DNA of 64,000 nt from Candidatus Woesebacteria bacterium GW2011_GWB1_39_10 (lineage in GTDB: Bacteria > Patescibacteriota > Microgenomatia > UBA8517), in assembly GCA_000993205.1 (NCBI GenBank), contig LBVU01000004.1:208030-272029 (forward strand). Direction: 5' to 3'. Shown here one piece after another: positions 1,041-33,204 of the stretch (position 1 is the first letter of the stretch; the number at the start of each line of letters is the position of its first letter). A program made the translations under genes and the position numbers. The notes beneath the pieces were generated by a model that worked only from the letters and a program-made list of their open reading frames with translations, ran no database searches and was not told the origin of the DNA.

Positions 1041-2680
1041 TGTACTTTATATATATTAACAGTATCGTTCTCAAAAATCTTAATCATTGGATATTCTTCC
1101 TCGGCCATAGGCAGTTGATAGATCTTGGGCAAATAAATATAACGTATATTGTTATCTTTCAAAAACTTGCTTGACCACTTTAAGTCTTTTTCATCGAAAA
1201 ACCTGTCGGCATTTTTTATCCTTGATTCATAATCAGTATTAAGGATTATCTGTTGTTCAACATCTTCAATGTAGACACTTTTACCGGAATAGGCGGACAC
1301 ATACGAATTATCTGCGTAAACACTTAATGGATACGGATCTTTAAATTTGCCGCGCAGATCTCTATCAAACGGATGCTTTAAGACAATACCGTCTGTCTGA
1401 GTAGATAGATATTTTAAGGCGGTGTACTCTGAAACCGGCAAATAAGCCGGGGGTTGGGGGTATAGCCAGCTTCGAAACGTAGCAGCCGAGCTAATTGGAG
1501 TAATTAATAAAACTAAAACCACCAGAGAAATTGAAGATTTTTTAAGAGCATTTGCCGCATATAAACCAGAAAAAAACAAAAAATAATAAAAAAACTGAAT
1601 AACGTTCCAAGGATTCCCTTTTTGAACGAAAATGAGCGTCGGGATAATTGAAATTGCCATCAAAGAAAAAATAAAGATATGCAAATCTTCCTTAAAATAA
1701 TTTTTTCTTAATCCCCAAAAACCAACTATCCTAGTTCCCAGGTTTCCTACAAAAAATATCATTAGAGCAATTAGTTCAAAAATAGCATAATTGAGCCATC
1801 TTCCACCCCCAATATAGGCAAATCTTCGTGCAGTAAAATTTGGAATACCTACCCTATCCCCGGCATCGATCATTGTATCGACCAGCCAAAGTGGCTGAAA
1901 TGCGACAAGACCGGCGGCCTCCTTGCTAATTGATAGATATATGGTGATAAATATACCTGCTGAAAAAATAAACACAGGCAGAAGGCTGAAATTTTTGTCG
2001 AAAAATATTTTCTTTAACGTCAAAACAAATAAAGCGCTCAGACATATTGCGCCTGCATACGCTTTAAAACCGACAAGAACCCCGAACGCAATTGATAAAA
2101 TCAAACCTTTTAAAAAGTCCGGTTTTTTTAGATATAAATCTAAAAGAATTACTGAAAAAATTATTATGACCAACGATATTGCATAGGGGGGGTTAAGGTT
2201 CATTGAAACCGGCTGGTTAGCCCAAAATGCGGACTCGCCGCCGATTTGCTGACCTTTGATCAAATTCACAACCCAACCAAAACTGCTTGCAAAATAGGCA
2301 AAAAACACAGCCAAGAGAGCTACTTTCTTATCTTTAAAAAGTAAATTGACCAACTTGTATGTTCCTATTCCAAGTAAAATCGAAAAGACGACCGGAAAAA
2401 ATCTATAAACAAGAAAGTTTGTAGATATTCCCAGGTTGTGTATTAAAGAAACTAAAAGGTCATATAAATAGTGATAGTTATATAATAACTGACCTGCGAA
2501 TCCCGGGTTTTGCGGGGGAACACCTTTACTCAACTGTCCGACAAGGGCTTCGTGCCATACTCCATCCCGAGCAAGCGGGCCGAAGTATCCTACTCCGTAA
2601 TTATAAAGCCACCCGCTTCTAAACATAGAAACGCCTTGAAAAATTACACCCAAGATAGTTAAAACCGTTAAGATAATCAT
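1037..2680 (-). CDS. GT-C-like polytopic membrane protein (YfhO/PTPS-related type) with C-terminal soluble domain
   Basis: 547 aa with about 10 N-terminal TM helices. The N-terminal motif GPLARDGVWHEALVGQLSKG..NPGFAGQLLYNYHYLYDLL is analogous to the D-x-x-H..G..P..FNFYxPLxYY motif of paralogs 3918..8794. About 150 aa of soluble C-terminus follow. Confidence 0.45.
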   Translation of the reverse strand: MIILTVLTILGVIFQGVSMFRSGWLYNYGVGYFGPLARDGVWHEALVGQLSKGVPPQNPGFAGQLLYNYHYLYDLLVSLIHNLGISTNFLVYRFFPVVFSILLGIGTYKLVNLLFKDKKVALLAVFFAYFASSFGWVVNLIKGQQIGGESAFWANQPVSMNLNPPYAISLVIIIFSVILLDLYLKKPDFLKGLILSIAFGVLVGFKAYAGAICLSALFVLTLKKIFFDKNFSLLPVFIFSAGIFITIYLSISKEAAGLVAFQPLWLVDTMIDAGDRVGIPNFTARRFAYIGGGRWLNYAIFELIALMIFFVGNLGTRIVGFWGLRKNYFKEDLHIFIFSLMAISIIPTLIFVQKGNPWNVIQFFYYFLFFSGLYAANALKKSSISLVVLVLLITPISSAATFRSWLYPQPPAYLPVSEYTALKYLSTQTDGIVLKHPFDRDLRGKFKDPYPLSVYADNSYVSAYSGKSVYIEDVEQQIILNTDYESRIKNADRFFDEKDLKWSSKFLKDNNIRYIYLPKIYQLPMAEEEYPMIKIFENDTVNIYKVQ

Positions 2681-3921: not shown

Positions 3922-5489
3922 TTATTCCTTCTAACTAGTATTGTAATGGCACCTAAGACGCTTAGCAAAGAAATTATATCCAATACCTTCCTGAATCTCG
4001 TTTCTTTAAATGCAATTTTCAGTTCGTGTTCCCCTGCCGGAACTTTAAATTCTAGTTGTCCATACGGTTCGCCGGCATAGACGTCAACTTTCTTGCCATC
4101 GACAGTTACAATCCAGCCGGGAAAATAATATTTACTGTAGTCAAAAATAGTTTCCTTTGCATAGTTTACTTTAAAGGTAGCTCCTAAGCCTTGATCGGGC
4201 GAAAGTTTATCCGGACGCATTTGAGTTTTTTGTGGTAAACGCAAATACTCCTCCTGAGTTTTAAGATATTCGGCTGAGGCGGACGGGAACGGAATATATC
4301 TATTTAGATAATATGCATCGGTTCTCCCTAAAAAGTCATGAGGTTTGTAATTTGTAAAGTTAAGCGCAACAGCCGTAAGAACAACTACAATGCCAATGGT
4401 CTTTGCAAGTTTAAATTTGTCGAATGATATTACAAGAACTGAAGTGGCAAACGTGGTCAAACTCAAAAACCTCCAAGGAAATTGAAAGTATGGTAAATAC
4501 GGAATGATTTTCCATAAAAATGTTGATCTAAAATTCATCAGGAATACAGAAACGGCTATGGTAAAAAGCGCCCAATATATAATCGGCTTTCCTTTCCTGA
4601 TAAGAACTACCGTCGCAACAACCAGTAAAACATTTATCGCTCCCATAAAAAAACTCATTCCGTCATGGGGCCCCGGGACTGACGCGCCGTATCCAAAATG
4701 GGGAGTGACTAATTGTTTAAGAGTGGGGAAATGATCGATAAAATTAAAATTTCCCGTACCATACTTCATCAATTTGCTCTCAATGAGCGCCGGGAGCCAA
4801 AAATACAAACTTACTAAAAGACCCAATATAAATCCGTAAATGGATCTGAGTATTCCTTTCCATTGCACCAATGCAAACAATGCCAGAAACGGAATAAACA
4901 TATAAGCCATAATGTCGTGCGATAAGATGAGCCCCGCAACACCCAATGAAAGGAGGCAAATCCATTTAATTGATTTCTCTTTACCGATCTTTGTGATCGA
5001 AAAAGCGATCAATGGAGGAAAAACAAACGCCAATATTTCCCCTATTGCCCCCCTGACATATATATCTGTAGCCCTATACGGGGTATAAACATACAATACG
5101 GCCCCTGCAAGCGCTAAGAATTCATTTGTATACTCTTTTATAAATTTATACATGAAGTACATCGAAAGAGGCACACTCATAAGGAATATTGCTTTAACGC
5201 TGTCGACAAGGGATAAACCTAACTTGTGGAATATTTCTCCGATGTAAAAAGGCAACGGAAAAACAAAATTAAAAAGAGGGTAGCCGAATCCAAAGGAAAG
5301 ATCCGGAACAAACCTGGGGGGAAATTGGCCGAGAGATAGCGACCTATTCATCTCGAATAACCATCCAATATGCAAGTCGTCACTAGCGCCAAAGTATCCC
5401 GGTACAAATAGTGCCCAAACAGCCGGAATTGACAATAACAGAATAATTAGAAATGGATATTTAACTAAAAATTTTTCTACCTTTTGCAT
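3918..5489 (-). CDS. membrane glycosyltransferase-like protein, paralog 1 of tandem triplet (PTPS-related/YfhO-like GT-C family)
   Basis: N-terminal motif PGYFGASDDLHIGWLFEMNRS..GFGYPLFNFVFPLPFYIG is shared with 5461..7113, 7094..8794 and the N-terminal half of 20532..23645. There are 10 or more TM helices, a C-terminal beta-rich periplasmic domain and a terminal TM anchor. Confidence 0.5.
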   Translation of the reverse strand: MQKVEKFLVKYPFLIILLLSIPAVWALFVPGYFGASDDLHIGWLFEMNRSLSLGQFPPRFVPDLSFGFGYPLFNFVFPLPFYIGEIFHKLGLSLVDSVKAIFLMSVPLSMYFMYKFIKEYTNEFLALAGAVLYVYTPYRATDIYVRGAIGEILAFVFPPLIAFSITKIGKEKSIKWICLLSLGVAGLILSHDIMAYMFIPFLALFALVQWKGILRSIYGFILGLLVSLYFWLPALIESKLMKYGTGNFNFIDHFPTLKQLVTPHFGYGASVPGPHDGMSFFMGAINVLLVVATVVLIRKGKPIIYWALFTIAVSVFLMNFRSTFLWKIIPYLPYFQFPWRFLSLTTFATSVLVISFDKFKLAKTIGIVVVLTAVALNFTNYKPHDFLGRTDAYYLNRYIPFPSASAEYLKTQEEYLRLPQKTQMRPDKLSPDQGLGATFKVNYAKETIFDYSKYYFPGWIVTVDGKKVDVYAGEPYGQLEFKVPAGEHELKIAFKETRFRKVLDIISLLSVLGAITILVRRNK

Positions 5490-7113
5490 ATATTAAAACC
5501 AATATAATAAAACTTAATACGGTAAGATTGTTTCCTAAAATTCTAATAGGTGTATTTTTAAACCTTCCCTCAATACTCGACATTCCTTCCGGTATAGTTA
5601 TACCAATTCTACCCAAAACGTTGTCGTTCGTGTGGACAGATTCTTTACCGTTTACAAACACCGTCCAGCCCGGGAAATCAAAAACAGGTATCTCAATTTT
5701 AGACTCGCTTTCGGCATTTGTTTTAAACGACCATCTATCTGATTTATTAATAAAATCAGATATTTTTACCTTTCCTGAAACAACATATGGCGCAACCGGA
5801 GCAAGCTCTCTGGGCTCAAGTGCGGTTTTGGGAAGATAGTCTAAAAGAGCCCCCTTTTGTTGATCAATAAAGTTTTGACCGGAAAGAAGCTCTTTATCGG
5901 TCAAGTTGAAATAAAAATGCTCGGGCTTAAAATATTGCCAGTTCAGCAATATTGCTAATAACGAAAATGTAATAGCAAAAAGATAACGAGTTTTACCACT
6001 AAATAAAGATATAAAATAACCACCAATTAAACTTGATGTAAAAATTACAACTGACAGAAACCTCCAGGGAAATTGAACAAATGCCAAAATATTTATCCGC
6101 TCCCAAACAAACGAGGATTTATTGTGAGTCATGTACACTCCAAAAGTAAAAAGTAAAAAGTAAAAAGTAAAAAGTGCGATATCTTTTCTTTTCCTACAAA
6201 AAATCACAGCAACAAGAGATAAAACCACAAGCCACCAATGGGGCCAACCAATTTGATAAGAAATTGTATTGGCAGATTGGGGTTGTGACCCAGCATAATT
6301 CCATGACCTGTCAATAAACAGTTGTGAGACCTTTACAAACTGCGCCCTAAAATCCAGCTCATTTCTGGTTAGTGCTTCAGTTTGCACCAAACTCTTTTCT
6401 AAAAATGCAGGCAGAATAAAAAAGGCCGAAATGCCAACGGCCAATCCCAAACTCAAAATTGCGATTTTAAACCCATTCCATTTATCTTTATGTAGCAAAA
6501 ATAAAACCCAAATGACTATTAGTGGTGTAAAAATTAATGTCATAATGTTGTGGGACACTAAAAGTAATGACATCGAAACAGTAGCGAGTGCAAAATATTT
6601 CTTTTCTTTAGTTTTAATCAGTCTTAAATACAAGTAATAAACAAGAGGGATAATTGCAAGGGCAAAACTTTCCCCCACCGCACCTCTTACATATGAATCT
6701 AGCGCCCTATACGGCGCAAATAGATAAAGTATTGCTGAAACAGTTCCGGGAATTTTTCCAAAAAGTTCCTTTCCCAGAAAATACATTCCCAGCCCGCCAA
6801 AAACCAATGGAAGAAAGAATAAAAGTTTTGCTGACCAAATATAACCTAAAAGAAAACTCGCAACCGCACCCAGATAGTAAGACAGAGGTCCATAGAAATT
6901 AAAAAGCGGATAACCATTTCCAAATCCCATATCAGGAACCCACCTACAGGGAATTTGAAAATCAGCAAAACACCTCCTCATCTCGAAAATCCTCATTGCC
7001 TGAAGATTGTCGTGGTGAGAAAAGTAGCCTGGCATGAGTATTGGCCAAACAACAAGGACCGAAAGTGTAAATATCAAAATTAAGGACCAATTATTATGAA
7101 AGAATTTTTTCAT
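5461..7113 (-). CDS. membrane glycosyltransferase-like protein, paralog 2 of tandem triplet; contains (AAAAAGT)n tract
   Basis: Motif PGYFSHHDNLQAMRIFEMRRCF..GFGNGYPLFNFYGPLSYYLG. The architecture is the same as paralog 1. Confidence 0.5.
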   Translation of the reverse strand: MKKFFHNNWSLILIFTLSVLVVWPILMPGYFSHHDNLQAMRIFEMRRCFADFQIPCRWVPDMGFGNGYPLFNFYGPLSYYLGAVASFLLGYIWSAKLLFFLPLVFGGLGMYFLGKELFGKIPGTVSAILYLFAPYRALDSYVRGAVGESFALAIIPLVYYLYLRLIKTKEKKYFALATVSMSLLLVSHNIMTLIFTPLIVIWVLFLLHKDKWNGFKIAILSLGLAVGISAFFILPAFLEKSLVQTEALTRNELDFRAQFVKVSQLFIDRSWNYAGSQPQSANTISYQIGWPHWWLVVLSLVAVIFCRKRKDIALFTFYFLLFTFGVYMTHNKSSFVWERINILAFVQFPWRFLSVVIFTSSLIGGYFISLFSGKTRYLFAITFSLLAILLNWQYFKPEHFYFNLTDKELLSGQNFIDQQKGALLDYLPKTALEPRELAPVAPYVVSGKVKISDFINKSDRWSFKTNAESESKIEIPVFDFPGWTVFVNGKESVHTNDNVLGRIGITIPEGMSSIEGRFKNTPIRILGNNLTVLSFIILVLIYAKGRKIFS

Positions 7114-25150: not shown

Positions 25151-26120
25151 ATTTTCTGGCAGTCTCCAAAACTTTAATTACAGCCTGGTCATATGGCATA
25201 TAAAGACGTGCAGCCGACGCTGACTTGTGTCCCCCTCCGCCTAATTTCTCTGCGATTTTCGAAACATCGAAATCATTTCTCGACCTAAAACTAACTGAGC
25301 AGAAGTTATCGAACTGTTCGAGAACAAAACCGAAATCCGTATTTTCAATGGATTGGATAAACGATCCTGCTATATAACTTTTTGCATCCCTGCTTCCGGG
25401 ATAATTTTTTGTGAGATCTTTAGGAACAGCCACCCAAGCGAACCTTGCGTCTTCCTCAACGACAACTTTAGTTAACATTTCTCCCATCAAATGTATTTCA
25501 TCAATAGGACGCGACATGTAAAGATTAAAAAGAATGTTCCTTCTGTCTGCTCCATTTTTGACGAGAGTGTCTGCCATTGAAAATGCCGATTCTCCGATAA
25601 TGTCTGTCTGAAAAGACATTGTGTCCGCGATTATACCCGTCAATAGTGATGTGGCAAGATCTGTAGTTAATTCCAGTTTCCAATCCGAAAATATTTTAAA
25701 CAAAAGAGCGCAACACGAACCGGTTTTTTCATCGACCAGATTAATATCGCCTTCCTTTGTGTTTGTATAATGGTGATCTATCACCACTTTTCGTATTTTG
25801 GAAGACAAAATGTTGTCTTTTCCGGTTGTCTGGTTCCAATTGCCGGAATCGACTATCACAAAAGTGTCATATTGAGAAAAATCAAAATCGTCAAAATTTA
25901 CTACTTTTATTGATTTCGAATTTGGTAAAAATTTACAATTATCGGGAATCTCGTCGGGAGAAATAATAGTGACATCGTCTTTTCCCAGCTCTTTCAATGC
26001 AAGGGACATTGAGGTTGCGCTACCAATACTGTCCGGATCGGGACTTCTATGACAATTAACCAAAATTTTGTTGGCTTTTTTAATTTCCTCTAAAATATTT
26101 TTACTTTCTTTGTAATTCAT
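25134..26120 (-). CDS. nrnA: DHH-family phosphoesterase (NrnA-like oligoribonuclease/pAp phosphatase)
   Basis: DHH motif VVIDHHYTN and DHHA1 GGGGHKSASAA. Confidence 0.7.
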   Translation of the reverse strand: MNYKESKNILEEIKKANKILVNCHRSPDPDSIGSATSMSLALKELGKDDVTIISPDEIPDNCKFLPNSKSIKVVNFDDFDFSQYDTFVIVDSGNWNQTTGKDNILSSKIRKVVIDHHYTNTKEGDINLVDEKTGSCCALLFKIFSDWKLELTTDLATSLLTGIIADTMSFQTDIIGESAFSMADTLVKNGADRRNILFNLYMSRPIDEIHLMGEMLTKVVVEEDARFAWVAVPKDLTKNYPGSRDAKSYIAGSFIQSIENTDFGFVLEQFDNFCSVSFRSRNDFDVSKIAEKLGGGGHKSASAARLYMPYDQAVIKVLETARKYAKKD

Positions 26121-27736
26121 TCTACGTTTACGTGACCAAGTTTATAAAGCGTTCCCCCCCAGACCTCCCATCTATCCACTATTTTAGTCCATCCGAACCT
26201 GGTAATCCAGGCGGAAGGACTATGTGTCGGATCGCACTTAGATTCTTCAAACTCACAGACAACAAAGAGCTGATCTGTTTGTGTAAATTCGGAGGTAGAA
26301 GGGTCGGTGTCGACCACATTGGCCCCCCAAATAATCAAAAAGTAGAGATAAACACTTCGATCGTCAAAATCTGATATCGCAGCTAAATTAAATTTGGCCC
26401 CACCCGCCTTCTCCTGTATAACTTTTGCCACAGATATCGCCCTAGGCATTTGATATGTAGGGTGTACAAACGGAGGATCGTTTTGAAAACTAACAAAGAC
26501 AATAAAACCAATAGTCAAAGAAAGCAGTACTTTAGCTATCAAGTTTTTATTATTTAAAATTTTTTGAGCAAAAGTTCCTAATAATAAAAACGGCGCCGGA
26601 AACAAAAAACCAAGGTAATGATCATAAATCTGACCTTTATAATAGGCTGTTCCAATAAGACCTACTGTAATCCATAAAGATAAAAGGCCGTAAGCGTCTG
26701 TAAAAAGGTGTTTTTTATAAATCCAGACTAAAAATATTATTGAGACCAATACCGCCAAAATTCCCAAATACATATTTTTGCCCATGGGCAAATTTGTAAA
26801 AACCATAAGAGTTGTTGCGCCAATTTTTGATAAATAGGCTAAAAGCGGGAGGCCAACATCACGACTGGAAGTAAAAAATATTTTTATTGCATTATAATTT
26901 TGCCAATTATGACGGATATCAAAGATGAGAAGTGGTGACATTAGCAGAGCGAAGAGCGAAAAAGCTAAGAATGAAGAGCGGACAAATATCGCTTTAACAA
27001 GTTTGTCATTTTTAATTTTGAATAACGTTAATAACCAAAAAACAAAAAGAGTTGGGGCAAGGAAAAGACCTAGATAGTGCGACTGGAGAACAAAGGCGTA
27101 GGAAATCCCCAATGTTATCAGCCAACCTCCCACTCCGCGCGAGGCTCCGCGGGATTCGTATACTTTCCATATGGAATATATAGAAAGTAACGAAAAAAAG
27201 GGCATTATATTTGGATTCCAAGAAGATCTTGAAAATGTTATTACAGTCGGTGAAATTGCATAAAGCCCAGCTGCCACCAACGCACCTACGTTCAGAGAGA
27301 CTTGAATGCCTCCTGTAGTTTTAACCGGAAACCACTCCCGCGTGATAAACCAAACAAAAAAAACTGTTACAACGCCTAATAGCGCAATTTGAACTGCCGG
27401 TCCAACCGGTGAAAAGTTGGCAAGAAGTAAAGCCGGGGCCATCATATAGTAATAAAGCGGCCCCAAATACATATTTCCAACCGATGTGCCAGGTCCAATT
27501 AGAGGTGGGTGCAGCTCGGTGATAAATCTTCTAACTATAAGCACGTCCCGCCCTTCATCACTAAGAAACGTCATATAATCAGAAATTCTATACAATCTCA
27601 TGAATGCACCGACTAATAGAATTAATAATAAAATCAAAAATTCTTTTTTATTCAACAAAATCCACGATCGAATTTTAGAAACTGTTGACTGTTGACTGTT
27701 GACTGTTGACTGTTCGATCATTTGAGTTTTCTCCAA
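26117..27736 (-). CDS. ArnT/PMT-type (GT39-like) GT-C membrane glycosyltransferase; likely ATG start at 27721 followed immediately by a heptanucleotide repeat
   Basis: FLSDEGRDVLIVRRF motif with multiple TM helices. The ORF-track start at 27736 is a TTG codon. Confidence 0.55.
   Translation of the reverse strand: MEKTQMIEQSTVNSQQSTVSKIRSWILLNKKEFLILLLILLVGAFMRLYRISDYMTFLSDEGRDVLIVRRFITELHPPLIGPGTSVGNMYLGPLYYYMMAPALLLANFSPVGPAVQIALLGVVTVFFVWFITREWFPVKTTGGIQVSLNVGALVAAGLYAISPTVITFSRSSWNPNIMPFFSLLSIYSIWKVYESRGASRGVGGWLITLGISYAFVLQSHYLGLFLAPTLFVFWLLTLFKIKNDKLVKAIFVRSSFLAFSLFALLMSPLLIFDIRHNWQNYNAIKIFFTSSRDVGLPLLAYLSKIGATTLMVFTNLPMGKNMYLGILAVLVSIIFLVWIYKKHLFTDAYGLLSLWITVGLIGTAYYKGQIYDHYLGFLFPAPFLLLGTFAQKILNNKNLIAKVLLSLTIGFIVFVSFQNDPPFVHPTYQMPRAISVAKVIQEKAGGAKFNLAAISDFDDRSVYLYFLIIWGANVVDTDPSTSEFTQTDQLFVVCEFEESKCDPTHSPSAWITRFGWTKIVDRWEVWGGTLYKLGHVNVE
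27681..27715. repeat. heptanucleotide tandem repeat (ACTGTTG)x4 plus an imperfect fifth unit, i.e. (CAGTCAA)n on the coding strand, at codons 4-13 of gene 26117..27736
   Basis: Read directly: actgttgactgttgactgttgactgttgactgttc. Confidence 0.9.
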
Positions 27737-29704: not shown

Positions 29705-32308
29705 TTACCAGCACCACCAGAGGAAACAGTGATTATTGCTTGGCTTTGGAGTTCCCACTTTCGCTTCAGGCTTCGTCGAGACCGGGCTGGTTGGTGGAGA
29801 TGTTTGAACAACAAATCTGTCTGAATGAAGCCGTGTTTGTGATGGGTATGTCAAAGCATACAAAGAAAAGTTTTTTGTTGTAGTGGAAACCATATTTTTG
29901 ATCCAGTCAACTACAATTGGAGTTTTAATTGTTTTCCATTTTTTAGATTCTGAATCAAAATATGAAACTTTTAAAACTGTAGGAGAAACTCCATTTAGTT
30001 TTGTTTTGTCATATGGCAGTTGTACTGTAAAAGGCTTGTCGGTTTTGTTAATAGGAAAACCATTAAAGGCAGAAACTGAGGAAATTTTAAAAATGTCAGA
30101 ATATGTATTTAATCCTTGACTCCAAGGGTATGGAATATTTGAAGTGTCTAAATCCTTCAGACCTTGCCTTTTTATTGTTACATACATATCATCATGACTA
30201 CTATATGAAGGAATTATTGTTCCTGCCCAGGAGTTATTAACAAAGGTTTGTAAAATTGAGGTATTTTTAGTGTAATTTGGTCCTGCATTGATACAGTATT
30301 TGTAATCTGCTTTACAATTAGAGTCAGATGATTCATTTTCAAAGCTTCCCACTTTGTAAACAATATAATGAGACTGGGGAGTATATGAACCATTGGTGTC
30401 GTATGCACGGACATATATTAAATGATTACCAGTTGATAAATTACTTATATCACAATCAAATTTGGTTGTTCCACTACAACTTGTCCAAGAAGTAGCTGGT
30501 TGATAATTATCATCAATACTATATTCAACTCCTGCAACAGCAGTTGTTGAGTTGGGTGCAGAAACTGTTCCACTTATTTTTACATTTGAAGTTAATGGAC
30601 TTGAAGTAACCGAAACATCAATAGTGTGGGGGAAATTATAAATTATGTAAAGAGAACCTGAATTGGTACGAGAGTTAAAACTTGCAGCACCAGCATCAAC
30701 TAAAATATCCATTTTACCGTTACCATATAAATTACCAACAGACAGCGCGTGACCCGAAAAAAAGCTTGAGGCTGTTGGACCATCGTATCGGATAGAATAA
30801 TTTGTGCCTGTTGCCAAATCGATATTATTTCCTGTCCCAGAATAACTAGCAATGAGTGAATCATAAATTACATAAAGGGACCCTGAATCGCTTCTACTAT
30901 TTTGGTCAGCCCGATATGCCACCACCAAAATATCATATATTCCGTTTGAATTATAATCAGTGGCCAGTAAAGAGAAATATCCGAGGCCATCACCTGCTAC
31001 GGCACCATCATAGCGGATAGAGTAATTTGTGCTTGTAGCTAAATCTATATTGTTGCCAGTTCCAGAATAACTAGCAATGAGTGCATTTTTGATGATATAG
31101 ATTGAACCTGAATCAGTTCTACTGTTATTGTCCTCTAAATAAGTTCCAATTAGTAAATCTTTTTTACCATCAATGTTTCCAGTTTTTAATGATCCAGACA
31201 GCTGATCATTAGCAATAGCACCGTCGTATCTTAAATTGTAGTTAGATGTTGTATTCATATCAACGATATTTCCAGTACCAGAGTAGTCATCAATCAATGA
31301 AGCATAGATTACATACACAGAACCGCTTCCAGTACGAGAGTTATAATCGGCTTGCCTTGCACCAATGATAAGATCTAATTTATTGTTATCGTTAAGATCG
31401 GAAACAACATCGTTGTGCCTACCAAAATTATCCCCCGTCGCAGCACCGTCGTATCTGATTGTAAAATTAGAAGTCGTTGCTAAATCAATAGTATTACCTG
31501 TTCCTAAGAGATTACCAAAGACTGTATTAGCGATATAATAGACTGAACCAGATTCATTTCTTGAATTATTGTCAGCAAAAACAGAAGCTAAAATTATATC
31601 CTGTTTATTATCGCCATCAATATCAAGATTCGTAGTATCTACACTTTTTGTTGATAAATTGTCACTAGCCGCAGCACCGTCGAAACGAATATTGAAGTTG
31701 TTTGAACTCGCAAGATCAATTGTATTACCCGTACCAGAATAATCATCAAGTAAGGTATCGTAGATTACAAATACAGACCCAGAGCCACTCCTAGAATTGT
31801 TATCTGATCCAATACTGGGGATAAGAAGGTCAAACTTTCCATTGCCATTTAAATCTTGAACAAAGACTCCTGCAGAAAAACCTAGCATATCGTTTGCTGC
31901 AGCACCATCGATACGAATGTTATAGTTATTTGGATTGGCTAAATCGATCGTATTGCCTGTACCGGTTAAGCCTTTCCATAGTGAACTATAAATTATATAT
32001 ATTGAGCCGGAATCTGCTCTTGAATTGTAGTCCGTCCAACGCGCACCAACGATGATATCTCTGTTCCCATCGTTATCTAGATCGACATTTGTCGCATTAG
32101 AATAAGTTAAAAGGTCAGAAGCATTGGCACCATCGATTCTAATGTTCCAATTCGTTGTCGTAGCCATATTGTAAGTAGTGGATGCCAGGATTTTAGAAGG
32201 AAAAACAAAGGAAGAAAAAAAAAGAAACAGGAAAATAAAGAAAAGAGATTTTACAAAACAGCGAAACTGTTTACTCTCTCTCTCTCTCTCTCTCTCTCTC
32301 GAAAACAC
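29705..32308 (-). CDS. secreted FG-GAP/VCBS-type repeat protein, predicted 7-bladed beta-propeller with Ca-binding loops plus C-terminal beta-rich domains; start codon GTG at 32308 (see SSR)
   Basis: Signal-peptide-like FIFLFLFFSSFVFPSKILA. There are seven roughly 60-aa repeats, each with a D-x-[DN]-x-[DN]-G-x-x-D loop (DLDNDGNRDIIVGA, DLNGNGKFDLLIPS, DIDGDNKQDIILAS, DLNDNNKLDLIIGA, NIDGKKDLLIGT, DYNSNGIYDILVVA, NLYGNGKMDILVDA). Each repeat is followed by NSR..SGS..Y-I-I/V-Y. Confidence 0.65.
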   Translation of the reverse strand: MFSRERERERESKQFRCFVKSLFFIFLFLFFSSFVFPSKILASTTYNMATTTNWNIRIDGANASDLLTYSNATNVDLDNDGNRDIIVGARWTDYNSRADSGSIYIIYSSLWKGLTGTGNTIDLANPNNYNIRIDGAAANDMLGFSAGVFVQDLNGNGKFDLLIPSIGSDNNSRSGSGSVFVIYDTLLDDYSGTGNTIDLASSNNFNIRFDGAAASDNLSTKSVDTTNLDIDGDNKQDIILASVFADNNSRNESGSVYYIANTVFGNLLGTGNTIDLATTSNFTIRYDGAATGDNFGRHNDVVSDLNDNNKLDLIIGARQADYNSRTGSGSVYVIYASLIDDYSGTGNIVDMNTTSNYNLRYDGAIANDQLSGSLKTGNIDGKKDLLIGTYLEDNNSRTDSGSIYIIKNALIASYSGTGNNIDLATSTNYSIRYDGAVAGDGLGYFSLLATDYNSNGIYDILVVAYRADQNSRSDSGSLYVIYDSLIASYSGTGNNIDLATGTNYSIRYDGPTASSFFSGHALSVGNLYGNGKMDILVDAGAASFNSRTNSGSLYIIYNFPHTIDVSVTSSPLTSNVKISGTVSAPNSTTAVAGVEYSIDDNYQPATSWTSCSGTTKFDCDISNLSTGNHLIYVRAYDTNGSYTPQSHYIVYKVGSFENESSDSNCKADYKYCINAGPNYTKNTSILQTFVNNSWAGTIIPSYSSHDDMYVTIKRQGLKDLDTSNIPYPWSQGLNTYSDIFKISSVSAFNGFPINKTDKPFTVQLPYDKTKLNGVSPTVLKVSYFDSESKKWKTIKTPIVVDWIKNMVSTTTKNFSLYALTYPSQTRLHSDRFVVQTSPPTSPVSTKPEAKVGTPKPSNNHCFLWWCW
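32274..32300. repeat. dinucleotide microsatellite (TC)13 (plus strand), i.e. (GA)13 on the coding strand, encoding (RE)n at codons 4-12 of the FG-GAP gene
   Basis: Read directly: ctctctctctctctctctctctctctc. Confidence 0.95.
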
Positions 32309-32455
32309 AGGTTAAATTTTGAAAATATTTCATATATCATACCCATTTTTGTTCTACCTTTGTAACCCTTCAAGATTGTAAAATTCTTCGCGGGTTGGTG
32401 CATCATCCATATTTTTAGTATACTCTTCACATCTTCCAGTTCAATAAGAATTATT

Positions 32456-33204
32456 ACCTTGCAAGGTTTCTCCTTACAAGGTAATATAAATTATGCCTGC
32501 AAGAAACTTAATAAGATTTGAGGGTGATGATTGTTACTATCACGTTTATAACCGTGGAGTTGAAAAGCGAATTATCTTTGAAGATGAACAGGACTACAAA
32601 GTCTTTTTAAATTATCTAAAAGAATATTTAAGCCCACCACCCGACCTCTCTAAAATAACAAAAACTTTTACCTTGCAAGGTTTCTCCTTTCAAGGTGTAC
32701 CACACCAGCCTAAAAACTATTTCGAGAAAGTTGAGCTTTTGGCATATTGCCTTATGCCTAATCATTTTCATCTATTTCTACACCAAAAGAATGAACATGA
32801 CATTGAAAAATTTATGCGATCGCTTTTAACCAGATATTCTATGTATTTTAACAAAAAATACGACCGTGTGGGTTCACTTTTTCAGGGACCATATAAATCT
32901 GCCATTGTGAGAGATGAATCATACTTTCTTCATTTAAGCAGATACATTCATTTGAATCCTTCTGAATATACAAAAGATTTAGTATCTGCATATTCTTCGT
33001 ATTCAGAATATTTGGGACTCAGAAAAACACCTTGGATACATCCAGAGAAAATATTATTTTTCTTTAAACAAGCAAGTAAAGATTTTATTCAAAAGGAAAA
33101 TAGTTACAAAAATTTTGTGAAGAATTATAAAATTGATAGCACTTCAATTCTGGAAAACCTTACGCTTGAATAACTAACCTTGAAGGGTCTCTCCTTACAA
33201 GGTA
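32456..33204 (+). mobile_element. RayT/IS200-like Y1 transposase gene bounded by direct copies of a 28-bp REP-like palindromic element
   Basis: Copies are ACCTTGCAAGGTTTCTCCTTACAAGGTA at 32456-32483 and ACCTTGAAGGGTCTCTCCTTACAAGGTA at 33177-33204, plus a third copy inside the ORF at 32670-32698. CCTTGCAAGG is itself palindromic. Confidence 0.65.
32493..33173 (+). CDS. IS200-like / REP-associated tyrosine transposase (Y1 HUH, TnpA_REP/RayT family)
   Basis: HUH motif LMPNHFHLFL, catalytic Tyr region RYIHLNPSEY and N-terminal YHVYNRG. The fold is shared with the second copy at 47792..48433. Confidence 0.75.
   Translation: MPARNLIRFEGDDCYYHVYNRGVEKRIIFEDEQDYKVFLNYLKEYLSPPPDLSKITKTFTLQGFSFQGVPHQPKNYFEKVELLAYCLMPNHFHLFLHQKNEHDIEKFMRSLLTRYSMYFNKKYDRVGSLFQGPYKSAIVRDESYFLHLSRYIHLNPSEYTKDLVSAYSSYSEYLGLRKTPWIHPEKILFFFKQASKDFIQKENSYKNFVKNYKIDSTSILENLTLE

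Follow-up and report, generated by a model that had tools for sequence, protein, structure and literature searches.

Does a dinucleotide repeat at the beginning of a gene for a secreted protein work as a switch of translation and, if so, in which of its states would the protein be made? This question is raised by a (GA)13G microsatellite found in a 64,000-nucleotide (nt) stretch of DNA from Candidatus Woesebacteria bacterium GW2011_GWB1_39_10 (contig LBVU01000004.1, positions 208,030 to 272,029; hereafter, the window), where it lies on the minus strand at the 5' end of the gene for an FG-GAP repeat protein. We propose, with a probability of about 0.6, that the locus is a slipped-strand translational switch, probably with three states, in which the 13-unit allele of the window would be OFF or weakly expressed. 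Alleles of 12 and 14 units would be the likely ON states. The proposal builds on the tract and its reading frames, on one natural allele of 12 units, and on the conservation of the tract, together with paired ATG codons, at other loci. The use of individual starts, the rate and reversibility of switching, and the surface location and function of the protein are treated below as predictions; the product may be an adhesin and the context may be a host-associated one.

The Repeat and the Gene That Carries It

The tract (32274..32300, minus strand) is 27 nt long, has a period of 2 and is 100% pure; it reads (GA)13G in the sense of the gene and (CT)13.5 on the plus strand. It is the sole dinucleotide repeat of at least five units in the 64-kb window, and a 15-nt GA pattern had 0.00 occurrences in 100 dinucleotide-preserving shuffles. 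A preliminary description of this DNA had reported a perfect 13-unit, 27-bp dinucleotide repeat at the 5' end of an open reading frame (ORF) of 867 amino acids (aa), and both the coordinates and the unit count were found to be correct when checked. The tract begins at the third base of codon 3 of this ORF and ends at the second base of codon 12, the order in gene sense being AAAATGGGTATGATATATGAAATATTTTCAAAATTTAACCTGTGTTTTC, (GA)13G and TAAACAGTTTCGC, and it encodes (RE)4 in the frame of GTG32308, the codon from which the ORF is called. A perfect simple repeat in the 5' coding region, with a unit that is not divisible by three, is one of the features by which contingency loci are recognized, and (GA)13G has it.

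The FG-GAP gene (29705..32308, minus strand) encodes 867 aa from GTG32308 when the tract has 13 units. Its product begins with MFS(RE)4SKQFRCFVK, continues with SLFFIFLFLFFSSFVF and then with PSKILA|STTYNMATTTNWNIRIDG, the bar marking the predicted cleavage, after which the mature part starts with STT. The signal-peptide coding region is located 3' of the tract (32183..32275, minus strand) and comprises SKQFRCFVK as a positive n-region, SLFFIFLFLFFSSFVF as the hydrophobic core, and PSKILA, after whose final A cleavage would take place according to its A-x-A pattern. In Pfam, the 867-aa protein matches PF01839 (FG-GAP) with 91.4 bits, compared with a gathering cutoff of 22.1 (E 2.6e-26); FG-GAP and FG-GAP_2 were the only Pfam families found, and NCBIfam gave no match.

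Start Codons and Reading Frames

The locus was rebuilt with 8 to 19 GA units and the in-frame initiators of each version were scored. When the number of units is 1 modulo 3 (10, 13, 16), GTG32308 (32306..32308, minus strand) alone is in frame with the gene. This codon is situated 8 nt before the tract, lacks a Shine-Dalgarno motif, and belongs to a frame that is closed upstream by an in-frame TAA (32314..32312), three codons up. At 0 modulo 3 units (12, 15), the gene frame is that of ATG32346 and ATG32340, which share one frame (32338..32346, minus strand; leader MGMIYEIFSKFNLCF), and at 2 modulo 3 units (11, 14) it is that of ATG32333 (32331..32333, minus strand; leader MKYFQNLTCVF). Each class of repeat number in the window has, in this simulation, some in-frame initiator.

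In the 13-unit state, the frame of ATG32340 and ATG32346 reads through the tract and stops at a TAA located at 32253..32251, and that of ATG32333 stops at another TAA (32273..32271) directly 3' of the tract. These results agree with the preliminary description on three points: GTG32308 is the sole in-frame initiator upstream of the signal peptide at 13 units, the upstream ATGs of the other two frames end in or near the repeat region, and the loss of one unit places ATG32340 (and ATG32346) in the gene frame. It had also been stated that the addition of one unit would break the GTG frame; this is so, but the effect was incompletely described, since ATG32333 then enters the gene frame.

The interval from the tract to the hydrophobic core of the window locus contains no in-frame ATG, GTG or TTG. 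Since there is no canonical start in this interval and the signal peptide is conserved (see below), export would require translation through the tract. Non-canonical starts 3' of the tract (ATT, CTG) were considered and rejected from a reading of the sequence, as they are located inside the hydrophobic core.

The following mechanism is proposed. The (GA)n tract would be a hypermutable slipped-strand repeat in the gene for a secreted FG-GAP beta-propeller protein, with the start codons on one side of it and the signal peptide on the other, and whenever one GA unit (2 nt) is gained or lost, a different upstream start would come into the gene frame. With 12 or 15 units, ATG32346/32340, in the conserved leader frame, are in frame and expression is predicted to be ON; with 11 or 14 units, ATG32333 would provide a second ON state with a different leader; with 10, 13 or 16 units, when only GTG32308 is available, expression is predicted to be OFF or weak. 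Ribosomes that start at the ATGs of a 13-unit allele would end at TAA 32273..32271 or TAA 32253..32251, before or inside the signal-peptide region. The population might then consist of a majority with low or no expression and an expressing minority, that is, bet-hedging for a surface protein. That 12 and 14 units are likely ON is suggested by the paired ATGs in two frames at four loci and by a conserved first-ATG leader, and that 13 units are probably OFF or weak is suggested by a third frame served only by a GTG without a Shine-Dalgarno motif.

Further upstream, a promoter-like site, TTGAAC-16-TATACT (32417..32444, minus strand), was noted as a consensus match only. It predicts a transcription start near 32410, upstream of all the candidate ATGs but not of GTG32430, a start from which one form of the protein has been called (see below). 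The site is not conserved at the other GA-tract loci that were compared.

Variation in Tract Length among Near-Clonal Genomes

Hypothetical proteins were built for 10 to 16 units and looked up by exact sequence in a public collection. The 12-unit form called from GTG32430 (907 aa) had an exact match; none was obtained for the 10-, 11-, 14-, 15- and 16-unit forms, nor for 12-unit forms with other starts. The carrier of the 12-unit allele is contig L004 (ENA ERZ909588, assembly of SRR1658462, 166 kb), which has (GA)12G between identical flanks. This 2-nt indel is the sole difference between L004 and the window over 8,724 bp.

Thirteen units are present in 9 of the 10 public assemblies of this near-clonal Woesebacteria population, which differ from the window by 0-3 single-nucleotide polymorphisms, and in 16 of the 17 assemblies in which tract length was read or inferred. 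The tract is the one place at which a frame-changing indel separates these near-clonal assemblies (a single instance, at the assembly level). Variation of tract length between near-identical genomes, another feature by which contingency loci are recognized, is therefore found here as one variant in assembly consensus.

The exact 867-aa protein is present on 9 public contigs, one of which is labelled as a groundwater metagenome (PRJNA268031), and carries the NCBI name FG-GAP repeat protein (KKQ91875.1 and KKR27032.1; Candidatus Woesebacteria GW2011_GWB1_39_10 and Microgenomates GW2011_GWC1_39_7b). Entries of 820 aa (P0002, e.g., KKS90865.1) were considered as length variants and rejected, being 13-unit loci called from a downstream ATG. 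In databases, the same gene appears with lengths of 820, 867 or 907 aa, according to the repeat state and to the start that was called, which constitutes a recurrent annotation problem. A gap-pattern scan of metagenome contigs with exact flanks gave 0 matches, the Joint Genome Institute (JGI) contigs that carry the tract being evidently outside that collection.

Another assembly, L010 (JGI sample 3300025308), has an in-frame 30-nt deletion in the FG-GAP gene, at window positions 30684..30713. It removes MDILVDAGAA from the last blade and is the second structural variant of this gene in assemblies that are identical in other respects.

Conservation of the Tract and of the Paired Start Codons

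About 160 homologs share an N-terminus with a short basic segment, then a hydrophobic core, and a site of the A-x-A type, followed by a mature start of the form T-Y-D/N-M-x-x-x-x-N-W-N-I-R-I-D-G (also written TYDMATTxNWNIRIDG). Pure GA tracts are found at the homologous position of three other FG-GAP loci, in two other Patescibacteria. The first of these loci, with the order ATGAATCATATTTCGGCACAAATC (GA)8G TAAACC, occurs on three contigs from three samples (L011-L013; protein P0118, 36-38% identical to the window protein). The other two belong to the Patescibacteria metagenome-assembled genome (MAG) FK_Sedi_B_Bin.317 (GCA_023485845.1), where L014/L017 carries (GA)7G and its paralog L015/L016 carries (GA)12G. 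Each of these two is followed by the same pair of genes, a Trp-repressor/HTH_38-like gene and a 125-aa gene, and this shared pair suggests a duplicated module.

The distance from the end of the tract to the FPSKILA codons is 70 nt in the window, in L014 and in L015, and this region aligns without gaps. Over the 50 residues that follow the tract, P0125 is 76% and P0127 is 48% identical to the window protein, and the remainder of these two proteins is 42-44% identical; overall, the bodies of the tract-bearing proteins show 36-44% identity with the window protein. The four tracts are all pure, and their lengths (7, 8, 12, and 13/12 units) are not congruent modulo 3. Therefore, slippage has repeatedly changed the frame in evolution.

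At all four GA-tract loci, two ATGs in different frames, 4-7 nt apart, precede the tract by 24-46 nt. In the window, they are located at -40 (plus -46) and -33 relative to the tract, and the third frame has a GTG at -8 only; in L014, they are at -44 and -39 and the third frame has no start; in L015, they are at -38 and -33 and the third frame has a distant ATG at -67; in L011, they are at -28 and -24, again with no start in the third frame. The leader that begins at the first ATG is conserved: MIYEIFSKFNL in the window, MICLKKVLSKFSL in L014 and MLCFKNLLSSL in L015. Comparison of DNA and leaders showed this similarity across loci (MIYEIFSKFNLCF, MICLKKVLSKFSLNL, MLCFKNLLSSLGS), with differences of a synonymous type, at third codon positions (TCA AAA TTT AAC CTG vs. 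TCA AAG TTC AGT CTG). A resemblance also exists between this leader and MCLKK (MCLKKISIF), the plain N-terminus of L043 (CP066686.1), a Woesebacteria homolog that has no tract. L043 contains an A8 run (1913..1920) in signal-peptide codons 3-5 (ATGTGTTTAAAAAAAATC), a shorter and potentially slippery homopolymer at the equivalent place.

The assemblies of L014, of L011-L013 and of the 12-unit L004 are in an ATG frame, and those of the window majority (13 units) and of L015/L016 (12 units) are in the third frame. Such a mixture of frame states is typically the picture offered by contingency loci. The slipped-strand switch suggested in the preliminary description gains support from the natural 12-unit allele and from the varied pure tracts at three loci. 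The polarity implied there (13 units ON, one more unit OFF), in contrast, found no support and would probably be the reverse, as the paired ATGs at four loci and the conserved first-ATG leader point to 12 and 14 units.

The tract appears in a small subset of the family. P0030, P0039 and P0081, considered as hidden tract carriers, were rejected because they proved to be start mis-calls with ordinary in-frame signal peptides and no repeat, so that the tract is confined to few members. The closest ortholog, P0006, is 80% identical. Blade repeats made up most of the result when the representatives were searched exhaustively with the first 110 aa as query; the close homologs matched the first FG-GAP blade in 7 stretches, and no further (RE)n N-termini were obtained. 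A homologous-protein search with a 77-aa N-terminal query gave no matches, and a third homolog search, with P0125 as query, added no close relatives. No relatives were found in a protein scan of genome contigs or in a scan of viral contigs, and 24 metagenome matches to the conserved signal-peptide DNA were rejected as unrelated chance matches.

More tentatively, and with somewhat less than even confidence, we propose that a three-state cassette, in which paired ATGs of two different frames precede a pure (GA)n tract and a signal peptide, has been retained under selection in divergent genes for FG-GAP surface proteins, in Woesebacteria as well as in other Patescibacteria. A small phase-variable gene set would comprise this cassette and the envelope glycosyltransferase genes nearby that carry frame-breaking heptanucleotide repeats (see below).

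Alternative Explanations

Several observations weigh against the proposed switch. A single length variant is known among about 17 assemblies, which come from related samples and apparently from one groundwater study site, and no length variation was seen at the three other GA-tract loci (2-3 assemblies each). The conservation of the paired ATGs concerns four loci, three of them alignable and thus not independent. The third frame has an initiator in the window (GTG at -8) and in L015 (ATG at -67), and for this reason the predicted OFF state may not be a true one. Shine-Dalgarno motifs are missing from most of the neighbouring genes, so that the strength of start codons cannot be ranked here from sequence; this scarcity, together with the 3 of 19 neighbours whose starts are called as GTG, means that GTG32308 may be a working start. 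The dominance of the 13-unit allele would also be expected if GTG32308 works and 13 units are ON.

Some of these observations fit the view that the tract slips and the protein is nevertheless made in all states, with changes only in the dispensable N-terminal leader and in the length of (RE)n. On this view, the microsatellite would be tolerated or neutral, or would exert a modest control of volume, without ON and OFF states. All three unit classes have an in-frame start in the window and likewise in L015, the predominance of the 13-unit allele is consistent with a functional GTG state, and GTG32308 is not to be dismissed when Shine-Dalgarno motifs are largely absent. However, the third frame lacks any start in L014 and L011, which indicates that the architecture is not generally frameshift-proof, and GTG32308, whose frame is open for only 3 codons, could have arisen by chance. 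Moreover, if it were neutral, a pure tract should decay, yet it has been kept at the same site in genes whose products are 36-44% identical. We consider a frameshift-tolerant leader of this kind unlikely.

It is more doubtful still that (GA)13 is a stable coding repeat, providing a charged (RE)4 n-region from GTG32308 and free of biologically relevant changes in length, and that the 12-unit contig results from stutter or assembly error. Dinucleotide tracts are prone to stutter in the polymerase chain reaction, and the count of 13 units in 16 of 17 assemblies, without variation at the other loci, would agree with such an artefact. However, stutter reads are normally a minority, and the 12-unit allele is the consensus of an otherwise identical 166-kb contig. 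The homologous tracts of 7, 8, 12 and 13 units are not congruent modulo 3, which indicates repeated frame changes by slippage, and the paired ATGs in two frames would be left without an explanation.

Finally, the idea that the polypurine tract tunes transcription or translation as a structural element, through pairing with the CU-rich signal-peptide codons in an mRNA hairpin or as triple-stranded DNA (H-DNA), is very improbable: the predicted fold does pair the GA tract with the downstream CU-rich region (minimum free energy -57.6 kcal/mol, z -2.46, a stability reached by 1 of 200 shuffles), but such pairing is the expected compositional by-product of a purine tract beside Phe/Leu/Ser-rich codons, a 2-nt change in the coding region shifts the frame whatever the structure, and Rfam found no family, only chance microRNA matches with E of about 0.9.

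Genomic Context and Implications of the Proposed Switch

The neighbours of the FG-GAP gene are envelope genes, namely those for dTDP-sugar enzymes, GT2 and GtrA glycosyltransferases, and several PMT/ArnT-like membrane glycosyltransferases. Two of the neighbouring minus-strand genes contain perfect heptanucleotide repeats. The first repeat (27681..27714; sense CAGTCAA, about 4.9 copies), in the gene 26117..27721, forms codons 4-15 of a 534-aa PMT/ArnT-like glycosyltransferase, whose frame would be broken by the gain or loss of one unit; no length variation was detected in the 8 assemblies covering the site. The second one (6142..6175; sense TACTTTT, about 4.9 copies) lies in the middle of the gene 5461..7113 and encodes ALFTFYFLLFTFG in a 550-aa PTPS_related membrane protein. 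The 90% cluster of this protein includes a 223-aa entry, P0133 (3 contigs, up to 18 kb), which starts at the Met right after the repeat and may be a frameshift variant.

A Y1 transposase-like gene is located divergently upstream of the FG-GAP gene. This Y1_Tnp (IS200-like) gene (32493..33173) is accompanied by three copies of a hairpin element of about 30 nt (ACCTTGCAAGGTTTCTCCTTACAAGGT), before (32452..32486), inside (32668..32696) and after it (33177..33204), the first one being intergenic and upstream of the FG-GAP gene. The copies resemble REP/RAYT or IS200 end hairpins.

Within the FG-GAP gene itself, the hydrophobic-core codons contain an A9 run on the plus strand (T9 in gene sense; 32215..32223), which corresponds to T5 in the homologous loci; it showed no length variation among 10 assemblies. 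At the other end of the protein, a PT-rich linker is followed by the tail CFLWWCW (basic-x-CFLWWCW; codons in 29705..29740). A regular expression for this tail matched 16 of 124 homologs, and several more have close variants, such as CFLFICW; an unrelated Kelch-repeat protein of L043 ends in a similar tail, CYLWNFVCF. Tails of this type may serve as a signal for sorting or anchoring.

Contingency loci are considered characteristic of pathogens and commensals adapted to a host. For bacteria of the Candidate Phyla Radiation (CPR), a life in attachment to other microbes is generally assumed, and their surface variation is known mainly through diversity-generating retroelements. If the more tentative proposal of a selected cassette and a phase-variable gene set is right, it would be the first evidence of localized hypermutation for surface variation in ultra-small uncultivated groundwater CPR bacteria, where such variation could, for instance, modulate host attachment or phage susceptibility. 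Repeat slippage acting on a secreted beta-propeller protein would represent a second and simpler mechanism of surface variation in the CPR.

Comparison with Known Systems

The mechanism is a classic one, and its occurrence in Patescibacteria (CPR) appears to be unreported. Nothing combining "phase-variable" with Patescibacteria was found in the searchable literature, and the publications that combine "phase variation" with "Candidate Phyla Radiation" comprised, as judged for part of them by title and abstract, the in-frame case of Gracilibacterium, a passing mention and others that are off-topic, with no frame-switching repeat. The Gracilibacterium case is a hypervariable PTD-repeat surface protein with an in-frame 9-nt coding repeat and synonymous variation (PMC6851277). 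As at the present locus, the repeat polymorphism is specific to one locus and affects a predicted surface protein of a near-clonal CPR population known from metagenomes, but neither frame-shifting nor start-codon logic is involved.

The arrangement of starts finds its counterpart in the lic genes of Haemophilus influenzae. In lic1A, three potential initiation codons in two frames lie upstream of the repeat (PMC4019658); the work of initiation-codon mapping cited there was carried out with lic2A (Dixon et al. 2007 J Bacteriol 189:511). The ATGs of lic1A/lic2A occupy two frames; of the three repeat classes, one is therefore off and the other two give translation, possibly to different extents. 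All four loci described here likewise have initiation codons of two frames before the repeat, with a predicted use. There is, however, no homology with the lic genes; their repeats are tetranucleotides (CAAT etc.) and not dinucleotides, their products are cytoplasmic enzymes of lipooligosaccharide biosynthesis and not a secreted FG-GAP protein, and their initiation codons have been mapped experimentally, whereas those proposed here are predicted.

The position of the repeat has its closest parallel in Helicobacter pylori. In oipA, a CT repeat is located in the signal-peptide coding region, and synthesis of the mature protein and of the conserved end of its signal peptide depends on the frame (PMC10564699). 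The two systems differ in several respects. The FG-GAP propeller has no homology with the Hop porins, the sense motif is GA here and CT there, and the tract of the window lies in the n-region, before the hydrophobic core. In addition, alternative starts occupy the other frames here, and the organism is not an animal pathogen but a groundwater CPR bacterium, whose switch is predicted from sequence. In spite of these differences, both the present locus and oipA (also sabA and babA) have a dinucleotide repeat in the signal-peptide coding part of a surface or adhesion gene. In oipA-type genes, slippage by one unit shifts the frame and ON and OFF alleles coexist among isolates, and it is to this behaviour that the FG-GAP locus, judging from its sequence, may be likened.

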